Below are positions 1,835 through 26,281 of a stretch of 37,114 nt of DNA, piece by piece. The notes below the pieces were generated by a model that saw nothing but the letters and a program-made list of their open reading frames with translations, had not been told where the DNA came from and searched no databases. The stretch is from a virus. The number at the start of each line of letters is the position of its first letter. Positions within the stretch are counted from its first letter, which is position 1. The stretch lies in UHGV virus genome UHGV-0042115, one strand, 5' to 3'. The translations under genes were made by a program, and so were the position numbers.

Positions 1835-2386
1835 TTAAATTCTGTTTTGCAGACCTGATATAAAAATATTATAACTGTGTGAAAGATTTCCAGTGATTCT
1901 AAGGCACTTGCCTATTGCTCTTGATCCAGATACCTTTTGATAAGCGTATTTTGTCAGAGATACCAATTCTTGAGCTGCGTTACCAAGTCGATCAGGGTTA
2001 CGATATTTACTATTATTTTGAGATCGGGAAAGCCGCGGGATTCCTAAAGCTTCCTCGACAGACAATAAATCTCCAAGATACCAGCTTTCAAGCTCATGGC
2101 ATGCAATGCGTATTAAAACATCTGTTTTACCAGCCTTTGAGCAAATATCAGACAGTCTAGATTTAATTGTTGGACCATCTCCGCTATCTTTATCTCTAAT
2201 GACTACAAAAATAGTATCAGGAGTCATCCAGTTTTTTAATTTTTTCTCCAAGTTCTTTTCTAGATCCTGTTTACCTTCAAATACAATATATCGAGTGTCT
2301 GCATCTGCCGGAAGTAATCGAGGCAGTAATCCTTTCAGCATTTCTGCTGCAGATAATTCTTCTAGAAAGAAAGCATAAGTTGTCAT
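1835..2386 (-). CDS. Small Toprim-like protein (DUF4276-like by motif recollection), partner of the upstream ATPase
   Basis: 183 aa; motifs IVFEGKQD and VVIRDKDSGDG resemble Toprim E...DxD; start overlaps the ATPase stop (ATGA); AT-rich. Confidence 0.55.
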   Translation of the reverse strand: MTTYAFFLEELSAAEMLKGLLPRLLPADADTRYIVFEGKQDLEKNLEKKLKNWMTPDTIFVVIRDKDSGDGPTIKSRLSDICSKAGKTDVLIRIACHELESWYLGDLLSVEEALGIPRLSRSQNNSKYRNPDRLGNAAQELVSLTKYAYQKVSGSRAIGKCLRITGNLSHSYNIFISGLQNRI

Positions 2387-3582
2387 TGCGGATCAACTCC
2401 TGGGAAAAATCCTTGTTTCCATAAATATCCCATTTTATCTCCATCATTCATATAGGCTACAAGTTGAGGATCATCTGAAGCCCTGAAAGCACGAGTATAT
2501 CCATTGGTTTTAGTTAACCAGAAAACCTCATCAATATTTACTGCATTCAAGAAGTCTGGGGAATGTGTAGAAACAAATACTTGCCCTCCTCTCTGTGTAT
2601 AGGCTCTGAACTCCTCTGCTAATTCTACTAGCAGTTTTGGATATAGTTGATTTTCCGGCTCTTCGACACATAATAATGGATGAGGCTCAGGATCGTGTAA
2701 TTGTACTAAATATGCAAACATTTTTAATGTTCCATCAGATACATATCTATCGATAAAGGGATCTGCAAAGCTTCCATCTTGAAAACCTAATAATAAACGA
2801 CCATCTTGAGTGCTTATCGGTTTAACATCAGAAACTCCGGGAACTCTATGTTTCATTGAGTCAATAATTTTAGAAAATATTTCAGGATAATTATCGTGGA
2901 TGTTTCGTGCAACTAACTGTAAATTATCGCCAGTTGCAGAAAGATGGTCTTCATATCCAATAGCATCTTTTGATCCCCTAGCTGCATTGATATGAAAGTC
3001 GGAAACATGCCAATTTTCAATTAACTGCCTGAAAGCACTGGCTGCTTTAAATTTACTAAATTGACCTAACCCTTTGATTGCTAAAACATCATCAGAATCA
3101 AGCTGCTGAGTCTCTCTGTTTAGTTCTTCATCTTGTTTACTGAAATCATCTTCATTAACAATCGCAGTACCATGGCCTCTGGAGAAGTCCAAAAAGTGAT
3201 AAGGCGAGCCAAAGGAACCTCTTTTATATCTCAAGATTTCTCTTTCAACATAAACTTTTTTCCTAGAATCTTCTTTAAGTTTTAGAATATAAGTAACTAA
3301 TCGTTCATACCCACTTATTTCAATACGAAATTTTACTTCAATCTCTATTGTCCGGTCGGTAACATCCACTCCACGGCTCAGAAGTTCTTCAAAACCTCCT
3401 CTTTTCTGAACAGCACTTCTCACATTGAAAGTAAGACAATCTTTCAGAAAGCCAAACACATCAAAAAGAGTAGTTTTTCCTACGCCGTTTGCCCCGACAA
3501 TAACACAAAATTTGGGGATATTGTTCATCTCAAGATCTTGGAACGACTTGAAATTTTTTAATTTTATGGCTTCAATTAACAT
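2383..3582 (-). CDS. ABC-type ATPase (OLD/AAA_15/AAA_21-like architecture)
   Basis: 399 aa; N-terminal Walker A GANGVGKTT, C-terminal Walker B LLCVEEPE and STHSP H-loop separated by ~250 aa; ATG 8 nt after the repressor stop with SD-like AGGA in between. Confidence 0.75.
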   Translation of the reverse strand: MLIEAIKLKNFKSFQDLEMNNIPKFCVIVGANGVGKTTLFDVFGFLKDCLTFNVRSAVQKRGGFEELLSRGVDVTDRTIEIEVKFRIEISGYERLVTYILKLKEDSRKKVYVEREILRYKRGSFGSPYHFLDFSRGHGTAIVNEDDFSKQDEELNRETQQLDSDDVLAIKGLGQFSKFKAASAFRQLIENWHVSDFHINAARGSKDAIGYEDHLSATGDNLQLVARNIHDNYPEIFSKIIDSMKHRVPGVSDVKPISTQDGRLLLGFQDGSFADPFIDRYVSDGTLKMFAYLVQLHDPEPHPLLCVEEPENQLYPKLLVELAEEFRAYTQRGGQVFVSTHSPDFLNAVNIDEVFWLTKTNGYTRAFRASDDPQLVAYMNDGDKMGYLWKQGFFPGVDPQ

Positions 3583-6413: not shown

Positions 6414-7267
6414 GCACCATCCTGAAATGGGCGGGTAATAAAACCGCCATTATGTCCGAACTGAAAAAACATCTTCCTGCTGGCCCGCGACTGGTTGAAC
6501 CTTTCGCGGGTTCTTGTGCTGTGATGATGGCGACGGATTACCCCAGCTATCTGGTTGCGGATATTAATCCTGATTTAATCAACCTCTATAAAAAGGTTTC
6601 TGCTGATTGTGAGGCGTTTATATCTCGCGCCAGAGTTTTATTTGAGAACGCAAACAGGGAGGTGGCTTATTACAACATAAAGCAGGAGTTTAATTACTCA
6701 ACTGAAATTACTGATTTCATGAAAGCGGTATATTTCCTGTATCTCAATCGTCACGGTTACCGTGGGTTATGTCGCTATAACAAGAGCGGGCATTTCAACA
6801 TTCCCTACGGTAATTATAAAAATCCGTATTTCCCTGAAAAAGAAATTCGCGCATTTGCAGAGAAAGCCCAGCGAGCAACGTTTATCTGCGCCAGCTTTGA
6901 TGAAACGCTGGCGATGCTGCAGGTGGGGGATGTGGTGTATTGCGATCCGCCTTATGACGGTACGTTTTCCGGTTATCACACTGACGGCTTCACTGAAGAT
7001 GACCAGTATCACCTGGCATCCGTTCTTGAACATCGGTCATCAGAAGGACATCCCGTCATTGTTTCTAACAGTGACACATCCCTGATCCGTTCGCTGTATC
7101 GCAATTTTACTCACCACTACATCAAGGCAAAACGCAGCATCGGTGTGGCAGCTGGTGATAGTAAATCTGCAACAGAAATCATTGCTGTTTCCGGGGCGCG
7201 CTGCTGGGTGGGATTTGATCCTTCGCGTGGCGTAGATAGTTCTGCTGTGTACGAGGTGCGTGTATGA
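6410..7267 (+). CDS. DNA adenine methyltransferase (Dam-like, D12 class)
   Basis: Motifs [53 protein letters not shown]; GGAGG SD before ATG 6410. Confidence 0.88.
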
Positions 7268-9676
7268 GTCATGACGATATGAGCAACTCTAGCGGCTTTA
7301 ACGAGGCCGCTGCATCATTTTCATGGAACGGCCCGAAAAAGGCCATTAACCCTTATCTGGACCCGGCGGAATTTGCGCCGGAGTCTGCACTTTCAAACCT
7401 GATCACTCTGTATGCTGCCGATAACGAGCAGGAACAACTGCGCCGCGAGGCACTGAGTGAGCAGGTCTGGGAGCGTTATTTCTTTAATGAATCCCGTGAT
7501 CCTGTCCAGCGCGAAATGGAGCAGGATAAGCTCATTAGCCGCGCAAAGCTTGCGCATGAGCAGCAGCTTTTTAACCCGGACATGGTCATTCTGGCAGATG
7601 TCAGCGCCCAGCCTACCCACATCAGCAAGCCGCTGATGCAACGTATCGAATACTTCAGCAGCCTGGGCAGGCCAAAGGCTTATTCCCGCTATTTGCGTGA
7701 GACGATTAAGCCATGTCTGGAGCGACTGGATTGTGTACGCGACAGTCAGCTATCCGCTTCTTTCCGTTTTATGGCAAGCCATCAAGGGCTTGAGGGCCTG
7801 CTGATCCTGCCTGAAATGAGTCAGGATCAGGTAAAACGCCTGTCCACCCTGGTAGCTGCGCATATGAGCATGTGCCTTGATGCCGCTTGTGGCGATTTAT
7901 ATGCCACCGATGACGTTAAGCCAGAAGAAATCCGCAAGACATGGGAAAAGGTGGCAGCGGAAACCCTGCGACTGGATGTTATCCCGCCTGCGTTTGAGCA
8001 ACTCCGCCGGAAAAGAAACCGCCGCAAACCCGTGCCCTATGAACTCATACCGGGTTCGCTGGCACGTATGCTTTGCGCCGACTGGTGGTATCGAAAATTG
8101 TGGAAGATGCGTTGCGAATGGCGGGAAGAGCAGTTGCGTGCTGTCTGCCTGGTCAGCAAAAAAGCATCTCCCTATGTCAGCTATGAAGCCGTGACGCATA
8201 AACGTGAGCAGCGCCGTAAGTCGCTGGAGTTTTTCCGTTCTCATGAACTGGTGAACGAAGACGGCGACACGCTGGATATGGAAGATGTGGTAAACGCCAG
8301 CAGCAGCAACCCGGCACATCGCCGCAATGAGATGATGGCCTGTGTTAAAGGTCTGGAGCTTATCGCAGAAATGCGTGGTGACTGCGCCGTTTTCTACACT
8401 ATCACCTGTCCGTCACGTTTCCATTCCACGCTCAACAACGGCAGACCCAACCCGACCTGGACAAATGCGACGGTAAGACAAAGCAGCGATTATCTGGTCG
8501 GCATGTTTGCTGCATTTCGTAAGGCTATGCACAAAGCCGGGTTGCGCTGGTATGGCGTGCGGGTGGCTGAGCCGCACCATGACGGTACTGTGCACTGGCA
8601 TCTCATGTGTTTCATGCGCAAAAAAGACCGCCGCGCCATTACTGCATTGTTGCGTAAGTTTGCCATCCGTGAAGACCGCGAGGAACTGGGTAATAACACT
8701 GGTCCACGCTTTAAATCTGAGCTGATAAACCCACGCAAAGGAACACCGACAAGCTACATCGCGAAATACATCAGTAAGAACATTGACGGGCGTGGTCTGG
8801 CTGGCGAGATCAGCAAGGAAACGGGTAAATCCCTGCGTGATAATGCTGAATACGTTAATGCTTGGGCGTCTCTGCATCGTGTTCAGCAATTCCGCTTCTT
8901 TGGCATTCCGGGGCGTCAGGCTTACCGTGAACTGCGATTGCTGGCTGGTCAGGCGGCAAGGCAACAGGGGACAAAAAGCAGGTGCGCCGGTACTGGATAA
9001 CCCGCGCCTTGATGCCATCCTGGCTGCTGCTGATGCTGGTTGTTTTGCCACCTACATCATGAAGCAGGGCGGCGTACTGGTTCCCCGCAAATATCACCTT
9101 ATCAGAACAGCTTATGAAATTAACGAAGAGCCGACTGCTTATGGCGATCACGGTATTCGTATTTATGGCATCTGGTCACCCATTGTACAGGGCAAGATTT
9201 GCACTCATGCAGTGAAGTGGAAAATGGTTCGTAAGGCCGTTGACGTTCAGGAGGCGGCAGCCGACCAGGGCGCTTGCGCCCCTTGGACTCGTGGCAATAA
9301 CTGTCCCCTTGCTGAAAATTTGAACCAACAAGGGAAAGACAAATCAGCTGATGGGGACTCCAGAACGGATATTACCCGTATGAATGACAAGGAGTTGCAC
9401 GATTACCTGCACAGTATGAGCAAAAAAGAGCGCCGGGAACTGGCTGCAAGGTTACGCCAGGTGAAACCGAAACGGCGTAAAGACTACAAACAGCGAATTA
9501 CGGACCATCAGCGACAGCAGCTCGTCTATGAACTGAAGTCCAGGGGATTTGATGGCAGCGAGAAAGAAGTCGATTTGCTCCTTCGCGGCGGCAGTATTCC
9601 GTCAGGAGCAGGCCTGCGTATCTTCTATCGGAACCAGCGTCTGAAGGAAGATGATAAGTGGCGGAACCTGTATTAA
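7264..9676 (+). pseudogene. A: Replication initiator gpA-like (rolling-circle endonuclease), reading frame changes near 8963-8990
   Basis: First 578 codons end at TAA 8998-9000; the remaining ~230 codons continue in the +1 frame (…[17 protein letters not shown]…) to 9676; junction lies in a G4/A5 homopolymer region. Confidence 0.7.
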
Positions 9677-9885: not shown

Positions 9886-10028
9886 GCTTGTAGCGGCTAG
9901 TGAGTGTAGTGATGAAGAGAAGGGGCTGGCTCTGCAGTGGGTTTCTGAATTGACTGATGAACTCATGGCAAAAATCAGAAGCCACGAATACAACCGCTCA
10001 ATGGATGTCATCAGCTGAGGTGACTTTT

Positions 10029-10262
10029 ATGCGCATTGAAATAATGATCGATAAAGAGCAGAAGATTAGCCAGTCTACCCTGGACGCACTTGAATCCGAG
10101 CTTTACCGCAATCTGCGCCCCCTGTATCCCAAAACGGTAATTCGCATTCGCAAAGGTAGCTCTAACGGTGTGGAACTAACCGGACTGCAACTGGATGAAG
10201 AAAGAAAACAAGTGATGAAAATTATGCAGAAGGTGTGGGAGGACGACAGCTGGCTGCATTAA
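10029..10262 (+). CDS. DinI-family protein
   Basis: 77 aa MRIEIMIDKEQ...LDALESELYRNLRPLYPKTVIRIRKGSSNGVELTG...MQKVWEDDSW resembles E. coli DinI; GAGG SD; track ORF starts earlier at 9957. Confidence 0.75.
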   Translation: MRIEIMIDKEQKISQSTLDALESELYRNLRPLYPKTVIRIRKGSSNGVELTGLQLDEERKQVMKIMQKVWEDDSWLH

Positions 10263-10270
10263 GAAATGTT

Positions 10271-10300
10271 GCCCCCAGGAGGATTCATTCTGATGGGGGC
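10271..10300. terminator. GC-rich hairpin (GCCCCCA / TGGGGGC, 16-nt loop) between convergent dinI-like and the acidic-protein gene
   Basis: 7-bp perfect stem; loop is long and the T-tract weak, so terminator function is uncertain. Confidence 0.3.
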
Positions 10301-10454
10301 TAGTTTGGGCAATGAGTGAAATAAGGCGTAAGGTGGGCGGTTATTTTGATAAGTGATCGTCCGCTTTGTGTCAGAAGCAGAAGTGGGAGTGTCTGAGACT
10401 CTCTAAAAGTTGATGATTCACTTACAAAACCATTTTCCTGATGGATGCTTACAC

Positions 10455-10790
10455 TTACGAATGATCATTCTGTTTAGTCTTCATGAGAAAATCCCGAATC
10501 TTTGCCAAGTTTGAATTTTCGGGGATTGAATCCATGTACGGATCACGCTCAAACACTAATTGCTCAGATTCAACGAAAGCCTGCCACTCTAATGGGTCTA
10601 GCTCAAATCCCATTGCTGTCATATCACTTTCATCTTCCCCCTCGATCCAGTGGACTAAATAAAACAATTCATCATCAGGAGAATCATCCTCACCATCAAC
10701 AATATCAACATCGGTTACAGTGATACGTAGGGTGGGATCGATTTTTGAGACATAAATTCCTAACTGTGGTATAGGGGGAATATTGTTCAT
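10455..10790 (-). CDS. Highly acidic 111-aa hypothetical protein
   Basis: Strong SD (AGGAG, 5-nt spacer) before the minus-strand ATG at 10790; ~25% D/E, few basic residues; no recognisable motif. Confidence 0.6.
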   Translation of the reverse strand: MNNIPPIPQLGIYVSKIDPTLRITVTDVDIVDGEDDSPDDELFYLVHWIEGEDESDMTAMGFELDPLEWQAFVESEQLVFERDPYMDSIPENSNLAKIRDFLMKTKQNDHS

Positions 10791-11038
10791 GGAAACTCCT
10801 TTTATTGGTGTTTGCTATTTGAATAAAAATACGCCAAACAGAGTGTTAACTGTGAATATGGAAAGAATCGTTGTAAGTACCCCGCTTAGGTGTCCCATTC
10901 TATTTTAGAGGTTCTCGTGCATATGGATTATGTTATCTGAAAGTTAACTTCCGCTTCCCGTTCACAGCGAACATTCATCTTTGTAAACCCGTATGATCCG
11001 TTTTTCAAGTGGCCATTCAGATACGGATTTTCACTTCC

Positions 11039-11068
11039 TTGACAGTGCATGACTATGCTGCATGAAAT
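11039..11068 (+). promoter_or_regulatory. Promoter-like element (TTGACA, 18-nt spacer, TGAAAT)
   Basis: Consensus -35 with moderate -10, in the long non-coding region upstream of the PRTase gene. Confidence 0.2.
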
Positions 11069-11102
11069 CGCATGATCGATTGAGGATCGTCTTTGCTCAG
11101 AT

Positions 11103-11124
11103 CCGCCAGAACTGGCGGGCTTTT
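11103..11124 (+). terminator. Intrinsic-terminator-like hairpin (CCGCCA GAAC TGGCGG) followed by GCTTTTG
   Basis: 6-bp GC-rich stem, 4-nt loop, 4-U tract on the plus strand. Confidence 0.35.
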
Positions 11125-11318
11125 GCTCATGTCATGCATGTGCATGAAAACCACTGCATAAAGCGGGCAGGCGTGGCGGGGATACGAGCGCGCGCTAACT
11201 CTTGGCTTTGTTTCATAATCAAAAATGTGATCATTGAGATTATTCTTAAATTTGTGTTTGTCTATGAAATATCATTTCGCTTAACATTGTTTGAGTTAGG
11301 ACTACATGAGAATAAAGA

Positions 11319-11894
11319 ATGCTTTTACCCGTAAGTATTACATCGTGTGGCTTGTATCACCCCTACTGGCATTTGGGAGAGCGCAACCCTCATAGCGATG
11401 AACTATCAAGGCAGATGATGGATTTTAAGGATGAAAATAATCGTAATCATCAAAGGGCCATTAACCGTTTTTCTCGATTAGCTATAGATAAGGTTGGGCG
11501 GTTAGTAATCAGAGGTGGCGGTGGGCGTTTTGTTGAGTCTCCTTTTTCGATAGCAGTTGTCCCGTCTCACACTGAAGGCAGAATTTCACCGGCTTTGATT
11601 GAGGTCGCCGAGCGAATCGTAAATGTTCACCGTCGGGGCATTGTTGATTGCTGTTTGGAAAGAACACGCACTGTTCCTAGCGCACATCGTGAAGGTGGAG
11701 ATCGCTCAATTACTGGTCACATGTCTAGTATCAGAGTTAGGGGTGGTAACCTCATGGGGCGAAATGTGTTACTACTAGATGATGTTAAAACAACAGGCGG
11801 TAGTTTGTCTGCGTGTTTTTATTTACTGGAGTCTGCAGGAGCTGGAGTTATAATGCCATTAGCTCTGCTAGAAACTGCAAACTATGAGGAGTAG
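11319..11894 (+). CDS. Phosphoribosyltransferase (PRTase)-domain protein, ComF-like; candidate toxin/effector
   Basis: 191 aa; C-terminal PRPP-binding motif NVLLLDDVKTTGGSL; ATG directly after an in-frame stop. Confidence 0.7.
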   Translation: MLLPVSITSCGLYHPYWHLGERNPHSDELSRQMMDFKDENNRNHQRAINRFSRLAIDKVGRLVIRGGGGRFVESPFSIAVVPSHTEGRISPALIEVAERIVNVHRRGIVDCCLERTRTVPSAHREGGDRSITGHMSSIRVRGGNLMGRNVLLLDDVKTTGGSLSACFYLLESAGAGVIMPLALLETANYEE

Positions 11895-11898
11895 CAAA

Positions 11899-12858
11899 GT
11901 GCACTCAGAAGAATTAAAAAATACACTTGGATTAGCTATTCAAATCGGGAAGCTAGCATCTGATCAAAGTGTATTAAAATTCTTTGAGCTTATCGATTTT
12001 GATGTTATTCGTGATATACGCGACTTAACTGAGATGGTTAATAGCCACGGGTTTCTAAAAGATAAAATATCTGAGACTGATTTTCTAATAGCGAACGCTG
12101 AATTGGAGAACCACCATGTTAATGGTGTGGAGCTAATACCATATGGGTCTGAATTCTATCCTCTTAGTTTAGCTTTTACTCCTAATCCACCATCAATTCT
12201 CTACATAAAAGGGGATAAAAGTATACTCAAAGAATTGCCGGGTGTCGCAATTGTAGGATCCCGTGATACCTCCCCTGCAGGGGAAGAAATAACGAGGCGG
12301 ATCACTAATCAGATAGTGTCTGCTGGGTATATTGTTGTAAGTGGGTTAGCAATAGGCACTGATGCGAATGCTCACAAGGCAACGTTACAGGCAAAAGGAA
12401 AAACCATTGCTGTCTTGGCGCATGGTCTTGAGGAGGCTAAGCCGAAGCAAAACAGTCGACTTGCTCAAGAGATTCTGGATAAAGGTGGTGCATGGATTTC
12501 TGAGTATCCTATGGGTCGGCCGGCCCAGAAACAATCATTTGTACAAAGAAATCGGATACAAGTTGGATTATCTGCAGGTTCAATTTTAATCGAGGCTGCG
12601 TTAAATAGCGGAACGATAACTCAAGCTGAGTTTGCAAATAAGGCGAAAAGACCAGTGTTTGCGGTTGTACCTCACCTACCTAATAATCCGCTTAATCTTA
12701 ATTGTGAGGGAACAGTTGATTTAGTTAAGAGCAACATGGCTAGAGCGCTAAAAACAAAACGGGATTATGATGATGTGATTATGATCATAAATGAGTCCCG
12801 GGAGTATTTGTTAGAGCTAAAATGGCCAGGGAAACAGAGTACATTAGACTTGATTTAA
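11899..12858 (+). CDS. DprA/Smf-like (Rossmann-fold DNA-processing) protein; alternative ATG start at 11884
   Basis: VAIVGSRDTSPAGEEI...VVSGLAIGTDANAH...TIAVLAHGL...YP...FVQRNRIQVGLS...LIEAALNSGT...PVFAVV matches the DprA core; AGGAG SD 7 nt before GTG 11899, just after the PRTase stop. Confidence 0.8.
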   Translation: MHSEELKNTLGLAIQIGKLASDQSVLKFFELIDFDVIRDIRDLTEMVNSHGFLKDKISETDFLIANAELENHHVNGVELIPYGSEFYPLSLAFTPNPPSILYIKGDKSILKELPGVAIVGSRDTSPAGEEITRRITNQIVSAGYIVVSGLAIGTDANAHKATLQAKGKTIAVLAHGLEEAKPKQNSRLAQEILDKGGAWISEYPMGRPAQKQSFVQRNRIQVGLSAGSILIEAALNSGTITQAEFANKAKRPVFAVVPHLPNNPLNLNCEGTVDLVKSNMARALKTKRDYDDVIMIINESREYLLELKWPGKQSTLDLI

Positions 12859-12861
12859 AGC

Positions 12862-12876
12862 GCCTCTTTTAGAGGC
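12862..12876. terminator. Short hairpin (GCCTCT ttt AGAGGC) between convergent DprA-like and portal genes
   Basis: 6-bp stem, 3-nt loop; only 24 bp separate the two stop codons. Confidence 0.3.
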
Positions 12877-12882
12877 ACTTTG

Positions 12883-13908
12883 CTAAATTTGATATCTCTC
12901 GAATTTTATAATTTCTTCACCGCTCCAATGATTAAATTCTTTCATTCTTTTTTGTAATGGTAATAATTCATTTTTCACAAATACCTTACTAGCTTTTTCT
13001 ACATCCCCAAATCCCCCAACATTATTAGGCATTATCCCCATCATTTGTGGCGGCACACGATGCGCTGCCATCATGTCATCCCGACTCACGTTCTTGATGT
13101 TAAGAAATTCATCCTTCGCCGCGACTTCTGACAACGGGATGATCTGAAGCCCGTCCTTTTTGCCGTTAGGCGAGTACATAAACAGGTTGCGGAAGTTGCC
13201 AGGGCCTTTGGCGCTTTTCATCGCATTGCGGAGGTTGTTCACATCCTCCTGGTTCTGCGCGGCATCGGTCATGTACATGATGAAGCCTGCATGACTGCCG
13301 TTAATGTAATACTTCCGGCGGAACAGCGTGGCGGACTCGTTGAGCAGGGCTGACGGAATGGCAGAAAGATAACCTGGCAGGCCGTAGATCTCCTGGTTGA
13401 TGTCCGGTTCCATCAGATGAAAAATGCTGCCTTTCGTGAACTGATACGGCTGGGTTGTCATACCGTATTGCACAAACCAGTAGGTATCCAGGTCTAACCC
13501 GCGTCGGGTGTATTTTGCCAGAGCAGGCTCAAGGGCGATAACTTCACCGAAGCGGTTCGTGCGTTTCTCCAGGTAGGCGTTACCAAATACCAGATAGTCC
13601 TGCACAAAACGTGAAAAAGCCTGCTGGCTGAGCAGCGGGTGAGGGATGTAGGTACTGGTCAGAATATTGCATTTCACCGCAATCGGTGAGCTGTGATGCA
13701 CGGCGGCGCGAAAGGTGCGCGCCAGCCCGTCAAAACTCACTGGCGGCTCATACCATCGATCTGTCTGTACGCATTCCACATAGTCCAGCAGTTCACGGCG
13801 GTCCAGAACAGGAACGGGATCGCCGAAGCTGAATGCTTCGGCTGAACTCTGGCTTTTATGCTGGATCTGATTCATCGCCGCTACGCGGTTTTTTTTACTC
13901 TTTCCCAT
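12883..13908 (-). CDS. Q: Portal protein (P2 gpQ-like)
   Basis: ~340 aa, P2 Q-like sequence and position; minus-strand ATG at 13908 overlaps the terminase stop (ATGA); the track ORF starts one codon upstream at TTG. Confidence 0.88.
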   Translation of the reverse strand: MGKSKKNRVAAMNQIQHKSQSSAEAFSFGDPVPVLDRRELLDYVECVQTDRWYEPPVSFDGLARTFRAAVHHSSPIAVKCNILTSTYIPHPLLSQQAFSRFVQDYLVFGNAYLEKRTNRFGEVIALEPALAKYTRRGLDLDTYWFVQYGMTTQPYQFTKGSIFHLMEPDINQEIYGLPGYLSAIPSALLNESATLFRRKYYINGSHAGFIMYMTDAAQNQEDVNNLRNAMKSAKGPGNFRNLFMYSPNGKKDGLQIIPLSEVAAKDEFLNIKNVSRDDMMAAHRVPPQMMGIMPNNVGGFGDVEKASKVFVKNELLPLQKRMKEFNHWSGEEIIKFERYQI

Positions 13909-15674
13909 CAAAAAATCTCCACAATATTGCTGGTATTGGCGGATTCGCCCTGCAGCGGTTCGTTAAACAATGCGTGCATCGTTGCCCAGGCCAGATCGGC
14001 GTGGCTGGCTTCTTCGCTGCGGCTGGCTTCATAGGTCGGGCGGTTGCCGCTGGCGGTGGTGGCGCGACGGATTGCCATAAAGGACTGCGCTATGTCGGTG
14101 TGCCCGGCGTCAAACTCCAGGCGGCGGTGGCTAATAATGTCGTAGGCCTTGAGTACCAGGGCGTTTTTAACGTTGGGGTTGTAGACAAACTCCCGGACGG
14201 CAGGAAAAAACGCTTTCACGTTCTCGTAAACCCCGTGACCGACGCCGGTTGAGTCGATACCGATGTATGTTACGTTGTACTGTTCAGTCAGTTTTTTGAT
14301 GGCGTCAGCCTGGGCGCGGAAGTCCATCCCGCGCCACTGGTGACGCTCAAGAATGCGGAACTTACCGCCCGGCACGGCTGGCGGTGCCACCACCACGCAC
14401 CCGGCGCTGTCGCCGTTTTGCGTACCTTTTGCCGGGTCATAACCGATCCACACTTCGCGCCAGCCAAACGGGCGCAGGGCCAGTGCATGAAAGTCGCTCC
14501 AGACTTCCCAACTGTCCACCATGCACGCCTGCAGCTCGCTGAGCGGGAACACGGACGCGAGATCGTCCACAAACTCGCACATCAGCAGGTTCTGGTATTC
14601 GTCCGGGCTGTACTCCATGCGCAACTGATCGAGGTCGAAAAGGTTACATCCGCCGCGCACTGCATCTTCCACGGTGACTATCTGGCGGTATTGCCCGTCT
14701 GCGCACAGCAGGCCGGGGGCCAGATTGCTGTGGGACAGGTCGATGTCCACCTTATCGGCTTTGTTACGCCCACGGTTGAACAGCGCACCAGACCAGAACG
14801 GATAAGCACTGTGTGTCAGGCTGGATGGCGTGGAAAAATAGGTTTGTCGCCATTTTTTGTGAATAGCCATACCGGAAGCCACTTTGCGCAGCTCCTGGAA
14901 TTTCGGTATCCAGAAATATTCATCCAGATACAGGTTGCCGTGGTAACTCTGGGCCGTGCGGGCATTGGTGCCGAGGAAGTAAAGCGTGGCCCCGTTGGGA
15001 AGCACCATCGGATCGCCTTTCAGCTCCACCTCCACTTCTTTGGCGAAGTCGATGATGTACTGTTTAAAGACGTGGGCCTGTGCCTTACTGGCGGAAAGGA
15101 AAATCTGGTTACGTCCGGTAAGCAGGGCGTCAATCAGGGCTTCACGGGCAAAGTAAAAGGTCGCGCCGATCTGGCGTGACTTCAGCAGGTTGCGGATGCG
15201 GTTGGTTTTTCCGGCTTCCCACCAGTGGCGCTGGTAGTTGAACATGGAGGAATGGAAGATTTCTTCCAGCTTCTCAATCTGCTCATCGGTGAAAACATTC
15301 TTTTCCGGCTGACGGCGCGGGCCTTTGTTGCGGTTGGCGACGTTAGGGTTTAAGTCGGCTTCGTTGCCGCCATTGTTAAACTTGCCGATCCGCGCGTGGC
15401 GTTCCGACTGGCGCGCCAGCAGGTCAATCTCTTTGAAATCTTTCCCTTCTTTGTGCTCCTTCATAATGAGCTGGCAGTAGCGTGCGGCGGTGGTGAGCTG
15501 CATCTGATCCAGCGGCCCATAGTCACCCCACTTGTCGCGTTTCTTCCAGCTGTGAACGGTTGCAACTTTCTCGCCCAGCATTTCAGCAATGCGGGCTACA
15601 CGGTATCCCTGAAAGTACAGCAGCATGGCCTGCCGACGGGGATCGAGATCTGCGGGTGTCAGTGTGGTGTTCAT
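13908..15674 (-). CDS. P: Terminase large (ATPase) subunit (P2 gpP-like)
   Basis: 588 aa, size and order as P2 P; divergent from the O-N-M-L operon. Confidence 0.88.
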   Translation of the reverse strand: MNTTLTPADLDPRRQAMLLYFQGYRVARIAEMLGEKVATVHSWKKRDKWGDYGPLDQMQLTTAARYCQLIMKEHKEGKDFKEIDLLARQSERHARIGKFNNGGNEADLNPNVANRNKGPRRQPEKNVFTDEQIEKLEEIFHSSMFNYQRHWWEAGKTNRIRNLLKSRQIGATFYFAREALIDALLTGRNQIFLSASKAQAHVFKQYIIDFAKEVEVELKGDPMVLPNGATLYFLGTNARTAQSYHGNLYLDEYFWIPKFQELRKVASGMAIHKKWRQTYFSTPSSLTHSAYPFWSGALFNRGRNKADKVDIDLSHSNLAPGLLCADGQYRQIVTVEDAVRGGCNLFDLDQLRMEYSPDEYQNLLMCEFVDDLASVFPLSELQACMVDSWEVWSDFHALALRPFGWREVWIGYDPAKGTQNGDSAGCVVVAPPAVPGGKFRILERHQWRGMDFRAQADAIKKLTEQYNVTYIGIDSTGVGHGVYENVKAFFPAVREFVYNPNVKNALVLKAYDIISHRRLEFDAGHTDIAQSFMAIRRATTASGNRPTYEASRSEEASHADLAWATMHALFNEPLQGESANTSNIVEIF

Positions 15675-24120: not shown

Positions 24121-25868
24121 GCACAAAATTTTATACCCTGCTGACGGATATTGGCGCGGCGAAACTTGCCAGCGCCGCCGCGCTCGGTGTGCCGTTAAAA
24201 ATTACCCATATGGCGGTCGGCGATGGCGGCGGAACATTACCAACGCCGGACGCAAAGCAGACAGCACTGGTAAATGAGAAACGCCGGGCTGCGCTGAATA
24301 TGCTCTATATCGACCCGCAGAACAGCAGCCAGATTATTGCTGAACAGGTGATCCCTGAAAACGAGGGCGGTTGGTGGATACGTGAAGTGGGCCTGTTTGA
24401 TGAGTCCGGGGCATTGATTGCCGTGGGCAACTGCCCGGAAAGCTATAAGCCGCAACTGGCTGAAGGCAGCGGGCGTACCCAGACCGTGCGTATGGTGTTG
24501 ATTACCAGCAGCACGGACAATATCACCCTGAAAATCGACCCTGCCGTAGTGCTGGCAACCCGCAAGTATGTGGATGACAAAATATCAGAGCACGAACAGT
24601 CACGACGTCACCCGGACGCCTCGCTGACCGCAAAGGGTTTTACTCAGTTAAGCAGTGCGACCAACAGTGAATCCGAAATACTGGCCGCAACACCGAAGGC
24701 TGTGAAGGCTGCATATGATCTTGCAGCAGGTAAAGCATCCGCCAGTCACACACACCCGTGGAATCAGATAACGGATGTGCCTGCAGCTTCACTGACGGTA
24801 AAAGGCACCGTGCAACTCAGCAGCGCCACTAACAGCACGTCAGAAACGCAGGCTGCCACACCAAAGGCAGTGAAGGCGGCATATGACCTTGCAGCAGGTA
24901 AGGCACCTGTCAGTCACACGCACCCGTGGAGCCAGATAACGGATGTGCCTGCAGCTTCACTGACGGTAAAAGGCACCGTGCAACTCAGCAGCGCCACTAA
25001 CAGCACGTTAGAAACGCAGGCTGCCACACCAAAAGCCGTGAAGGCTGTATATGACCTTGCCAATGGAAAACAACCTGCCGACGCCACACTGACCGCACTG
25101 GCAGGCCTTGCCACTGCGGCAGACAAACTTCCGTATTTTACGGGGAATGATACAGCCAGCCTGACAACCCTGACTAACGTTGGACGGAATATTCTGGATA
25201 AAGCAAGCACACAGGCGGTTATTCAATATCTTGGTCTGAGCGATGCAAGTGGATACGTTGGACGCTGGCTGAATACCCGGGTTTTCACCTCATCAGGTAC
25301 GTACACCCCGACGCCAGGAACAAAACGGATCAGGGTCACAATAACTGGCGGCGGTGGCGGTGGGGGCGGCTGCAAGGCTATATCCAATAATGAAACGTTT
25401 TTCGGTGCTGGCGGTGGGGCCGGTGGAACAATAATTTCAATAATGACCCCGACACAGAATAGTTATCCAGTCACTATCGGCGCAGGTGGGGCCGGTGGTG
25501 TTAGTGCGACGAACGGCACCAGTGGCGGGAATAGCGTATTTGCATCGTTAATTGCTCCTGGTGGCGCAGGTGGCGGGAAAGTGGGAGTTACAAATACAAA
25601 CGGCGGTAACGGAGGTGTGCCGAGTACTGGCGATATCCGCATCACTGGTGGAAATGGAGGCGACGGTCAGTCCGGAAATATCAGCGTCAGCGGTGAAGGC
25701 GGAACATCGTACTGGGGTGGCGGTGGACGCGCAGGCGCTGGCGGTGGCGTTAGCGGTAAGGCATATGGTTCAGGCGGAGGTGGTGCATACGATGCCGGTT
25801 ATAGCGGAACCAGTATGACGGGCGGGAAAGGCGCTGCAGGGATTTGTATTATCGAGGAGTTTGCATAA
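24117..25868 (+). CDS. H: Tail fiber protein H with internal tandem repeats and glycine-rich C-terminal domain
   Basis: Conserved P2 H-like N-terminus (MSTKFYTLLTDIGAAKLA...); repeats and Gly-rich C-terminus described separately. Confidence 0.85.
   Translation: MSTKFYTLLTDIGAAKLASAAALGVPLKITHMAVGDGGGTLPTPDAKQTALVNEKRRAALNMLYIDPQNSSQIIAEQVIPENEGGWWIREVGLFDESGALIAVGNCPESYKPQLAEGSGRTQTVRMVLITSSTDNITLKIDPAVVLATRKYVDDKISEHEQSRRHPDASLTAKGFTQLSSATNSESEILAATPKAVKAAYDLAAGKASASHTHPWNQITDVPAASLTVKGTVQLSSATNSTSETQAATPKAVKAAYDLAAGKAPVSHTHPWSQITDVPAASLTVKGTVQLSSATNSTLETQAATPKAVKAVYDLANGKQPADATLTALAGLATAADKLPYFTGNDTASLTTLTNVGRNILDKASTQAVIQYLGLSDASGYVGRWLNTRVFTSSGTYTPTPGTKRIRVTITGGGGGGGGCKAISNNETFFGAGGGAGGTIISIMTPTQNSYPVTIGAGGAGGVSATNGTSGGNSVFASLIAPGGAGGGKVGVTNTNGGNGGVPSTGDIRITGGNGGDGQSGNISVSGEGGTSYWGGGGRAGAGGGVSGKAYGSGGGGAYDAGYSGTSMTGGKGAAGICIIEEFA
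24617..25075 (+). repeat. Three tandem ~168-bp (56-aa) repeats within the tail fiber gene
   Basis: Unit ...ASLTVKGTVQLSSATNSTSETQAATPKAVKAAYDLAAGKA.VSHTHPW.QITDVPA...; copies 2 and 3 nearly identical at nucleotide level (period 24773 to 24941). Confidence 0.7.
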
Positions 25869-26281
25869 TGAATGCGTCATATGCAGTTATTGAAAATGGG
25901 ATGGTTGTGAATGTCATTGTCTGGGATGGTGAGGATGAATTCACTGTGCCGGATAATCTGCAGCTCATTAATATTTCTGATATCAGTGAGCAGCCCGGAA
26001 TCGGCTGGGCGTATTCAGACGGGGTATTTACTGCGCCGCTCCCTCCGGAACGTTCTCATGATGAACTGGTAGCTGACGCTGAACAGAAAAAACAGTCGCT
26101 GATAGACGCAGCAATGGTCAATATCAGCGTGATTCAGTTAAAGCTGCAGGCCGGGCGCAAACTGACGCAAGAGGAAACTACCCGACTTAACGTTGTGCTG
26201 GATTATATCGAGGCTGTGACGGCAACAAATACCAGCACCGCACCTGATATTATTTGGCCTGTTTTCCCTGCAAGCAGATAA
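25868..26281 (+). CDS. G: Tail fiber assembly protein (P2 G position)
   Basis: ATG overlaps H stop (TAATG); position. Confidence 0.6.
   Translation: MNASYAVIENGMVVNVIVWDGEDEFTVPDNLQLINISDISEQPGIGWAYSDGVFTAPLPPERSHDELVADAEQKKQSLIDAAMVNISVIQLKLQAGRKLTQEETTRLNVVLDYIEAVTATNTSTAPDIIWPVFPASR

Follow-up and report, generated by a model that had tools for sequence, protein, structure and literature searches.

Positions 11319–12858 of UHGV virus genome UHGV-0042115, whose 37,114 nucleotides were analyzed as a whole and are referred to here as the window, hold a two-gene module that, by analogy with a characterized system, is probably a prophage-borne ShosTA-type pair. Such a pair is a type IV toxin–antitoxin system that provides anti-phage defense by abortive infection; in the window its toxin would have a minimal form. 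The first open reading frame (ORF1) encodes a small phosphoribosyltransferase (PRTase) and the second (ORF2) a protein of the DprA family. Both lie on the + strand where the original prediction, made from the nucleotide sequence, had placed them, with products of 191 and 319 amino acids (aa), the latter counted from a GTG start. The same prediction had tentatively proposed a ShosTA-type system, and this suggestion gains support from profile and structure comparisons of both proteins.

11319–11894, + strand: ORF1 (191 aa), a minimal ShosT-like PRTase and putative toxin, with a PADLOC ShosT match and a PRTase-fold model
11884–12858, + strand: ORF2, a ShosA-like DprA-family protein (Pfam PF02481; PADLOC ShosA), putative antitoxin and single-stranded DNA (ssDNA)- and RecA-binding component

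The comparison set was ShosTA of Escherichia coli APEC (avian pathogenic E. coli) O1 and KTE181 (Rousset 2022; Millman 2022), with the structures 8ZVA–8ZVD and 9VZO. A "DprA + PRTase" pair taken from the P2 gpA–Q hotspot of APEC O1 protected against T7 and lambda (Rousset 2022, PMC9122126), and this Rst_DprA-PPRT system was later renamed ShosTA by DefenseFinder. ShosT is a 424-aa protein composed of an N-terminal HAD-type pyrophosphatase (1–164) and a C-terminal non-canonical PRTase (165–424); its toxicity requires binding of phosphoribosyl pyrophosphate (PRPP) through D331/D332 and R285, with contributions from H240 and K280 (PMC11961720, PMC12961424). The D331A/D332A mutation abolishes toxicity and H240E lowers it (PMC11961720; PMC12961424), and the pyrophosphatase mutation R56A reduces it only marginally (PMC11961720). 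ShosA consists of a SAM domain and a DprA fold and does not bind ShosT. Neutralization instead needs ssDNA binding (R139, R234), dimerization, and RecA binding (K200, R206), and the protein is intrinsically unstable via its C-terminus (PMC11961720, PMC12961424). Described triggers are host shut-off by T7 Gp0.7 and possibly phage ssDNA (PMC11961720, PMC12961424).

The PRPP-binding signature with which ORF1 had been said to end is present as NVLLLDDVKTTGGSL, although at residues 149–163, in the last quarter of the protein rather than at its very end. Within the PRPP-loop motif VLLLDDVKTTGGS, D154, D155, T158, and G160 are invariant among 17 homologs, as are H84, R115, and G127-D128-R129-S130 elsewhere in the protein. 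The AlphaFold model (predicted local distance difference test score, pLDDT, 90.7) shows a PRTase fold in a single domain, and a Pfam scan of ORF1 returned no HAD match. PF00156 was matched weakly (E 0.0012, 18.6 bits, under the 26.3-bit cut-off). The PADLOC profiles were more specific: ShosT (PDLC03962) matched with E 3.7e-14 over profile positions 62–211 of 237, ahead of PsyrT. In a Foldseek search with the ORF1 model, the ShosT structures 8zvc (E 5.1e-5) and 8zvd (E 7.9e-5) ranked first, with template modeling (TM) scores of 0.51–0.54. Pairwise BLAST and single-sequence hhalign comparisons with long ShosT covered the PRPP loop only, and family-versus-family profiles were needed to reveal the relationship. 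In that comparison, the ORF1 family and the long ShosT family aligned with 97.8% probability (E 9.2e-13, 110 columns, ~20% identity). This remote homology pairs H84 with H240, R115 with R274, S121 with S281, and D154-D155 with the D331-D332 pair of ShosT.

ORF2 is a clear member of the DprA family (PF02481, E 1.4e-60), in agreement with the DprA/Smf core reported earlier for the second gene. PADLOC matched it to ShosA with both PDLC03961 (E 2.8e-70) and PDLC02997 (E 2.8e-33), again ahead of the Psyr counterpart, PsyrA. The product measures 324 aa from ATG 11884, the start annotated in RefSeq, or 319 aa from GTG 11899, which is preceded by a ribosome-binding site and corresponds to the position at which several homologs begin. 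The model (pLDDT 90.8) comprises a helical N-domain (8–79), a Rossmann core (82–289), a long helix (292–310), and a low-confidence tail, in which the block 311–320 has a mean pLDDT of 67 and residues 318–324 fall below 50. As modeled, this succession of N-domain, core, C-terminal helix, and tail reproduces the layout of ShosA. Identity to APEC O1 ShosA is 36% over 198 core residues, and Foldseek superimposed the model on ShosA (8zva) over 307 columns with TM 0.70–0.73. R127 and R222, the counterparts of the ssDNA-binding residues R139 and R234 of ShosA, are invariant, and K188, the counterpart of the RecA-contacting K200, is conserved in close homologs. ShosA R261 aligns with E249 of ORF2; the R261E mutant of ShosA is still functional according to the structural studies (PMC11961720, PMC12961424).

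The two genes are co-oriented on the + strand and either overlap, if ORF2 starts at ATG 11884, or lie 4 nucleotides (nt) apart, if it starts at GTG 11899. The junction reads ...AAC TAT GAG GAG TAG caaa GTG. An AGGAG ribosome-binding site for ORF2 had been predicted just after the first stop codon; the site exists, but it overlaps the TAG stop of ORF1 (11892–11894) instead of following it. Because the AGGAG extends across the ORF1 stop and lies 6 nt from the GTG, the two genes are translationally coupled. The module is framed by the following elements.

11170–11188, no strand: cos site, bounding the cargo slot on the left (context, outside the module)
11189–11318, + strand: leader of 130 bp between cos and ORF1, where the module's own promoter is presumed from position only
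11888–11892, + strand: AGGAG ribosome-binding site of ORF2, overlapping the ORF1 stop, 6 nt before GTG 11899
12857–12882, no strand: hairpin predicted by RNA folding where the stops of ORF2 and the portal gene Q converge

Folding energies of the hairpin are −12.7 kcal/mol for the + strand (z = −3.45) and −15.5 kcal/mol for the − strand (z = −5.43). Its probable role is that of a bidirectional terminator, and the tQ terminator of P2 occupies the equivalent place. RNA structure in the leader was not significant (z = 0.29, RNA folding), and an Rfam scan of 10200–13000 gave no match.

The combination of genes is strictly kept across phyla. In every full-length homolog locus examined, a DprA-like gene lies directly 3′ of the small PRTase gene, so the pairing is not due to chance. 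The same pair is found in the P2-like prophage of enteropathogenic E. coli (EPEC) E2348/69, and Pectobacterium P2-like prophages carry it (191 + 320 aa) in the same slot, adjoining the portal gene. In Salmonella phage SopEPhi, tblastn identified orf14–orf15, annotated "unknown" and located directly upstream of gpQ, as homologs of the pair (AY319521, 11098–12646; 3989–5537 of locus L059), with 50% identity between orf14 and ORF1. An Atlantibacter locus likewise has the PRTase followed by the DprA-like gene. Outside P2-like elements, the pair occurs in Mu-like prophages (of Shewanella algae, where it follows mor, and of Aeromonas, where it lies among head genes), in a resolvase-linked locus of Vibrio parahaemolyticus, and in Alteromonas macleodii (L056, 2823–4960); the PRTases upstream of the DprA-like gene in Aeromonas, Alteromonas, and Vibrio are 37–45% identical to ORF1. 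It was also found in 11 Lachnospiraceae/Clostridia loci and 1 Acholeplasmataceae locus from metagenome-assembled genomes. The DprA-like partner in the Lachnospiraceae/Clostridia loci is shorter (226–266 aa) and matches ORF2 only from about residue 90. Both the P2-like and the Mu-like prophage pairs occupy accessory cargo slots, as is typical of mobile defense cargo. Both genes are present together in only 33 of 5426 complete E. coli genomes, compared to 1266 with the P2-type flanks of the locus, and the E. coli pairs fall into two allele groups, at >=95% and ~75% identity.

ORF1 itself belongs to a family of constant size. Homologs of 189–194 aa from Citrobacter, Enterobacter, Dickeya, Yersinia, Hafnia, Pectobacterium, Kluyvera, and Shewanella align end to end with 40–88% identity and 29 invariant columns, the N-terminus included, and the length is conserved in the 17 homologs. 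An exhaustive profile search with this family returned 1055 clusters (50% identity, E <= 1e-10), most of them stand-alone proteins of 175–200 aa matched over positions 6–187. Nonetheless, RefSeq annotation by the Prokaryotic Genome Annotation Pipeline (PGAP) omits ORF1 in all 15 of the 15 best E. coli matches, which include E2348/69, and it does so in ECO8855 as well; in E2348/69, the locus tags skip from RS04335 to RS04345 where ORF1 lies (NC_011601.1, around 863510–864085). The exact 191-aa protein is present in GenBank (e.g., CAS08362.1) and occurs on at least 1000 contigs, and an allele with ~75% identity is labeled "phosphoribosyltransferase" in some genomes. Public records differ widely in the start codon chosen, yielding products of 158–226 aa. 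Sequence comparison thus provides strong evidence that ORF1 is a real gene despite its omission from RefSeq. Since RefSeq lacks it in most E. coli with the allele, protein-based censuses of defense systems would miss the system there.

Related loci also indicate how the short toxin may relate to the two-domain ShosT. In Alteromonas, a separate gene for a 172-aa HAD hydrolase lies directly upstream of the short PRTase and DprA genes, which are followed by an AAA_15/AAA_21 ATPase pair. One representative (P0439, 349 aa) is a HAD domain fused to a short-type PRTase, and in other representatives the short-PRTase domain forms the C-terminus of proteins of 392–708 aa. From their sequences, the split HAD gene of Alteromonas and the P0439 fusion look like intermediates between the minimal toxin and ShosT. 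This modularity of the HAD part agrees with the finding that R56A ShosT stays nearly fully toxic. A further architecture is found in three Rhizobium/Rhizobiales loci (L035, L044, L045), where a protein of 411 aa whose C-terminal part is a PRTase precedes a DprA-like protein of 578 aa.

The module sits in a cargo region of a complete P2-like prophage of ~33 kb, which the window contains between rcdA (a TetR-type gene, 20–586) and ybjL/ybjM. From gpA, the map continues through a small ORF, the DinI-like gene, and a − strand ORF of 111 aa to cos, and from there through ORF1 and ORF2 to the portal gene. At cos, GGCGTGGCGGGGATACGAG followed by cgcgcgctaac corresponds to P2 cosL, GGCGAGGCGGGGAAAGCAC followed by tgcgcgctgac (AF063097, positions 1–19), and ~155 bp around it show ~90% identity in 45 P2-like phage records. 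In this megablast search of phage genomes, the match was limited to the 155 bp flanking cos and the genes of the pair were unmatched; the SopEPhi homologs came from the later tblastn search. The earlier assignment to the hotspot between gpA (7264–9676) and portal Q (12883–13911, − strand) stands, although not at the old/tin position: the module fills the short interval from cos to the portal gene, whereas P2 old/tin and the ShosTA genes of APEC O1 occupy the interval on the other side of cos, toward gpA. The APEC O1 locus reads portal, cos, shosA (327 aa), shosT (424 aa), gpA, and transcription is directed away from cos there as in the window.

The prophage carries two lesions outside the module. 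Compared with E. coli ECO8855 and E2348/69, gpA has a 2-bp deletion at ~8968, and the frame stops at 9000, giving 578 instead of 804 aa; this is either a true inactivating frameshift or an assembly error. The integrase gene (691–1743, − strand) has a premature stop, W51*, at 1591–1593 and is otherwise near-identical to that of ECO8855. Together the integrase stop and the gpA frameshift suggest a locked-in, decaying prophage whose cargo is still intact. Despite both lesions, the pair is intact and identical to the ECO8855 pair, which fits useful cargo being kept during decay.

By analogy with the long form, from which toxicity, indirect neutralization via ssDNA and RecA, antitoxin instability, the triggers, and phage protection are carried over, a simple model can be drawn for the pair. 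ORF1 would be weakly expressed from a promoter of its own adjoining cos and would act as a small PRPP-dependent PRTase. Its activity would disturb nucleotide metabolism or DNA replication and, as for ShosT, would be lethal if unopposed. ORF2, made by coupled translation and acting as a DprA-like dimer that binds ssDNA and RecA, would offset the damage without contacting the toxin. Two triggers are conceivable: a phage that shuts off host expression could deplete the less stable antitoxin, or phage ssDNA or intermediates bound by the ssDNA-binding protein SSB could titrate ORF2 away from RecA. With the toxin prevailing, the cell would die or arrest ahead of phage release, and by guarding the lysogen population the module would also protect the prophage. 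The absence of a HAD/pyrophosphatase domain from ORF1 would imply that the PRTase alone suffices as the effector.

Several observations weigh against this assignment. The narrow ShosT profile PDLC03012 (427 positions), on which APEC O1 ShosT scores 973 bits, did not match ORF1 at E <= 0.1, and the profile that did, PDLC03962, also matches a generic ComF-like PRTase (1.3e-08). A sequence search of the PDB with ORF1 gave weak generic PRTase matches and did not find ShosT. The fold similarity to ShosT is moderate and equaled by that to the competence protein ComFC. In the family alignment, ShosT K280 is paired with P120 of ORF1 and R285 falls into a gap, in a flexible loop, so neither has a clear counterpart. 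ORF2 is equidistant from ShosA and genuine DprA, with phmmer scores of 112 bits for 3maj (DprA) and 106 for 8zva and TM scores of 0.75 and 0.70, and the RecA-binding R206 of ShosA aligns with A194. A consensus scan of the + strand of the leader returned no sigma-70 promoter match. The caution about gene sizes and order voiced in the original prediction was justified: the known ShosT has 424 aa and its gene follows shosA, whereas the putative toxin of the window has 191 aa and comes first. In the searchable literature there is no experiment on the short form, and all functional data stem from the system with the 424-aa toxin. Taken together, the adjacent, co-oriented genes matching ShosT (PDLC03962) and ShosA (PDLC03961) make the pair a ShosTA system in the broad profile sense, whereas the strict features, namely a match to the narrow family profile and a two-domain toxin, are lacking.

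A bolder alternative, which we regard as doubtful, turns the relationship around. The core toxin of all PRTase–DprA defense systems, ancestral and most widespread, would be the ~190-aa PRTase, with HAD, helicase, and other N-terminal domains as later add-ons. The pair would be a hijacked competence-type machine for handing over ssDNA that senses phage replication intermediates directly, and ORF1 would be ComFC-like, acting on ssDNA or being controlled via it. The published model of ShosT, in comparison, is that of a nucleotide-pool poison countered by repair.

A second alternative also starts from competence proteins but dispenses with toxicity. ORF1 would be a ComFC-like chaperone, binding PRPP or nucleotides, that passes ssDNA to a DprA-like RecA loader, and the module would serve the phage itself in recombination, replication restart, or lysogeny. 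The original prediction had pointed to the ComF/DprA parallel, and aptly so: Helicobacter pylori ComFC (7p0h, 191 aa) follows ShosT closely in the fold comparison with ORF1 (E 4.5e-4, TM 0.54), the comF family TIGR00201 aligns with ORF1 residues 28–183, and a DinI-like modulator of RecA filaments lies within the same cargo region. ComFC binds ssDNA and interacts with DprA in Streptococcus pneumoniae and Campylobacter jejuni (PMC9005727). Yet ORF1 reaches a comF score of just 25.5, where the cut-off is 233.55, the four-cysteine zinc finger is absent, and defense-system profiles outscore competence profiles. The pair is also found in differing accessory slots of unrelated phages (cos–Q in P2-like phages; after mor or among head genes in Mu-like phages), which fits portable cargo and not a core function, and it is rare among E. 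coli genomes relative to the P2-type flanks. On balance, a phage-serving role for the pair appears unlikely.

Stabilization of the prophage by plain addiction, that is, post-segregational killing without meaningful phage protection, is a third and still less likely explanation. ShosTA was first found as a toxin–antitoxin pair (Kimelman 2012, as represented in citing papers), coupled genes and a putatively unstable antitoxin tail would suit an addiction module, and the module is intact although the prophage has lost integrase and gpA function. However, phage defense has been demonstrated for the long-form homolog of this hotspot, and a chromosomal prophage with a dead integrase can persist with no help from addiction. 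Addiction and defense are, moreover, not mutually exclusive. An origin of the two genes as passengers from the competence genes of a host (comF/gntX and dprA/smf) can practically be discarded: the domain content equals that of the two cytoplasmic competence proteins, but the proteins are not near-identical to host ComF or DprA, an outcome the original prediction had considered, as NCBIfam scores far below the equivalog cut-offs attest (GntX 13 vs. 304 for ORF1; PRK10736 168.6 vs. 495 for ORF2), ORF1 with its 191 aa lacks the zinc finger, and the closest relatives occupy mobile or accessory settings (prophages, a resolvase-linked locus) and not chromosomal comF or smf loci.

Other cargo of the prophage is described here for completeness. 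Between gpA and cos lie a DinI-like RecA-filament-binding protein (9957–10262, + strand; PF06183, E 1.2e-22), notable given the action of ShosA through RecA, and a 111-aa acidic protein (10455–10790, − strand; phrog_17127). The DinI-like gene was considered as a third component of the module and rejected, being located on the opposite side of cos and missing in the loci of Pectobacterium, Shewanella, and Aeromonas. A second defense candidate occupies 1835–3582 (− strand) between the integrase and CI repressor genes; it has a low GC content (36–40%) and consists of a 398-aa AAA_21/AAA_15 ATPase and a 182-aa DUF4276 protein, which match HEC-01, a candidate system in PADLOC (E 6.4e-209 and 2.9e-74). 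ECO8855 has a different gene, encoding a P-loop nucleoside triphosphatase, at this position. In the tail-fiber region, 24581–26261 (~1.7 kb) has no match in ECO8855, which carries ~2.7 kb there with inverted tail-fiber segments and a recombinase (invertase) gene. This difference is probably a swap of tail-fiber/host-range cassettes.

Under the ShosTA-type assignment, the main value of the module lies in the minimal PRTase core as the conserved element; otherwise it is expected cargo for the P2 hotspot. Should the minimal pair prove active, killing by ShosTA-type systems would be the work of the PRTase core alone, with the pyrophosphatase as an optional booster, and the search for the acceptor substrate would be narrowed. 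The pair would also offer a smaller system for biochemistry, available in the well-studied EPEC E2348/69 and SopEPhi.

Among known systems, the PRTases that serve as effectors in type III retrons and in Ophion (OpnC) belong to the same defense-associated PRTase clade according to the literature, and a Pectobacterium homolog of ORF1 has a weak PRTase_III-A match. The partner in the window is DprA-like, however, with no reverse transcriptase, msr-msd, radical-SAM, or PHP component. According to a recent preprint, the PRTase of ShosTA is the only one characterized among defense PRTases. PsyrTA/RqlHI combines a PRTase with a DprA-like partner; the C-terminal PRTase portion of ORF1 is matched by PsyrT at E 4.9e-6 and ORF2 by PsyrA at E 1e-30. 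These scores are below those of ShosT and ShosA for both ORFs. The PsyrTA toxin, moreover, is a RecQ-like helicase–PRTase, whereas ORF1 has no helicase domain and matches only positions 577–686 of the 689-position profile.

ComFC resembles ORF1 in length and fold, with a PRT domain whose PRPP loop reads DD..TTG, and it works with DprA, which it binds in some species. It differs by its four-cysteine zinc finger: the N-terminal 40 residues of ORF1 contain a single cysteine, and neither this cysteine nor H14 is conserved in the 17 homologs. ORF2 similarly stays below the competence cut-off of TIGR00732 (186.4 vs. 191.15), and with its 319–324 aa it covers only positions 71–271 of the 374-position PRK10736 model of E. 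coli DprA. The setting differs as well, the window pair being prophage cargo and not part of a competence locus.

The closest parallel is ShosTA itself. Both systems consist of two adjacent, co-oriented genes for a PRPP-binding PRTase and a DprA-like protein of ~320 aa, and both lie in the gpA–Q cargo region of P2-like prophages, adjoining cos. Counterparts exist in the window for H240, R274, S281, and the acidic PRPP-loop pair of ShosT and for the ssDNA-binding arginines of ShosA. On the other hand, the 191-aa toxin lacks the HAD/pyrophosphatase domain of the 424-aa ShosT and, relative to the PRTase domain of the latter, the first ~70 residues, a long insertion, and a ~60-residue tail. The antitoxin has only 36% identity over its core, with the R206 contact to RecA not conserved, and the pair is inserted on the Q side of cos, whereas ShosTA lies on the gpA side. 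A PRTase and a DprA-like protein in the P2 hotspot are thus an already known kind of defense, of which the window holds a different architecture in toxin size, gene order, and insertion point.

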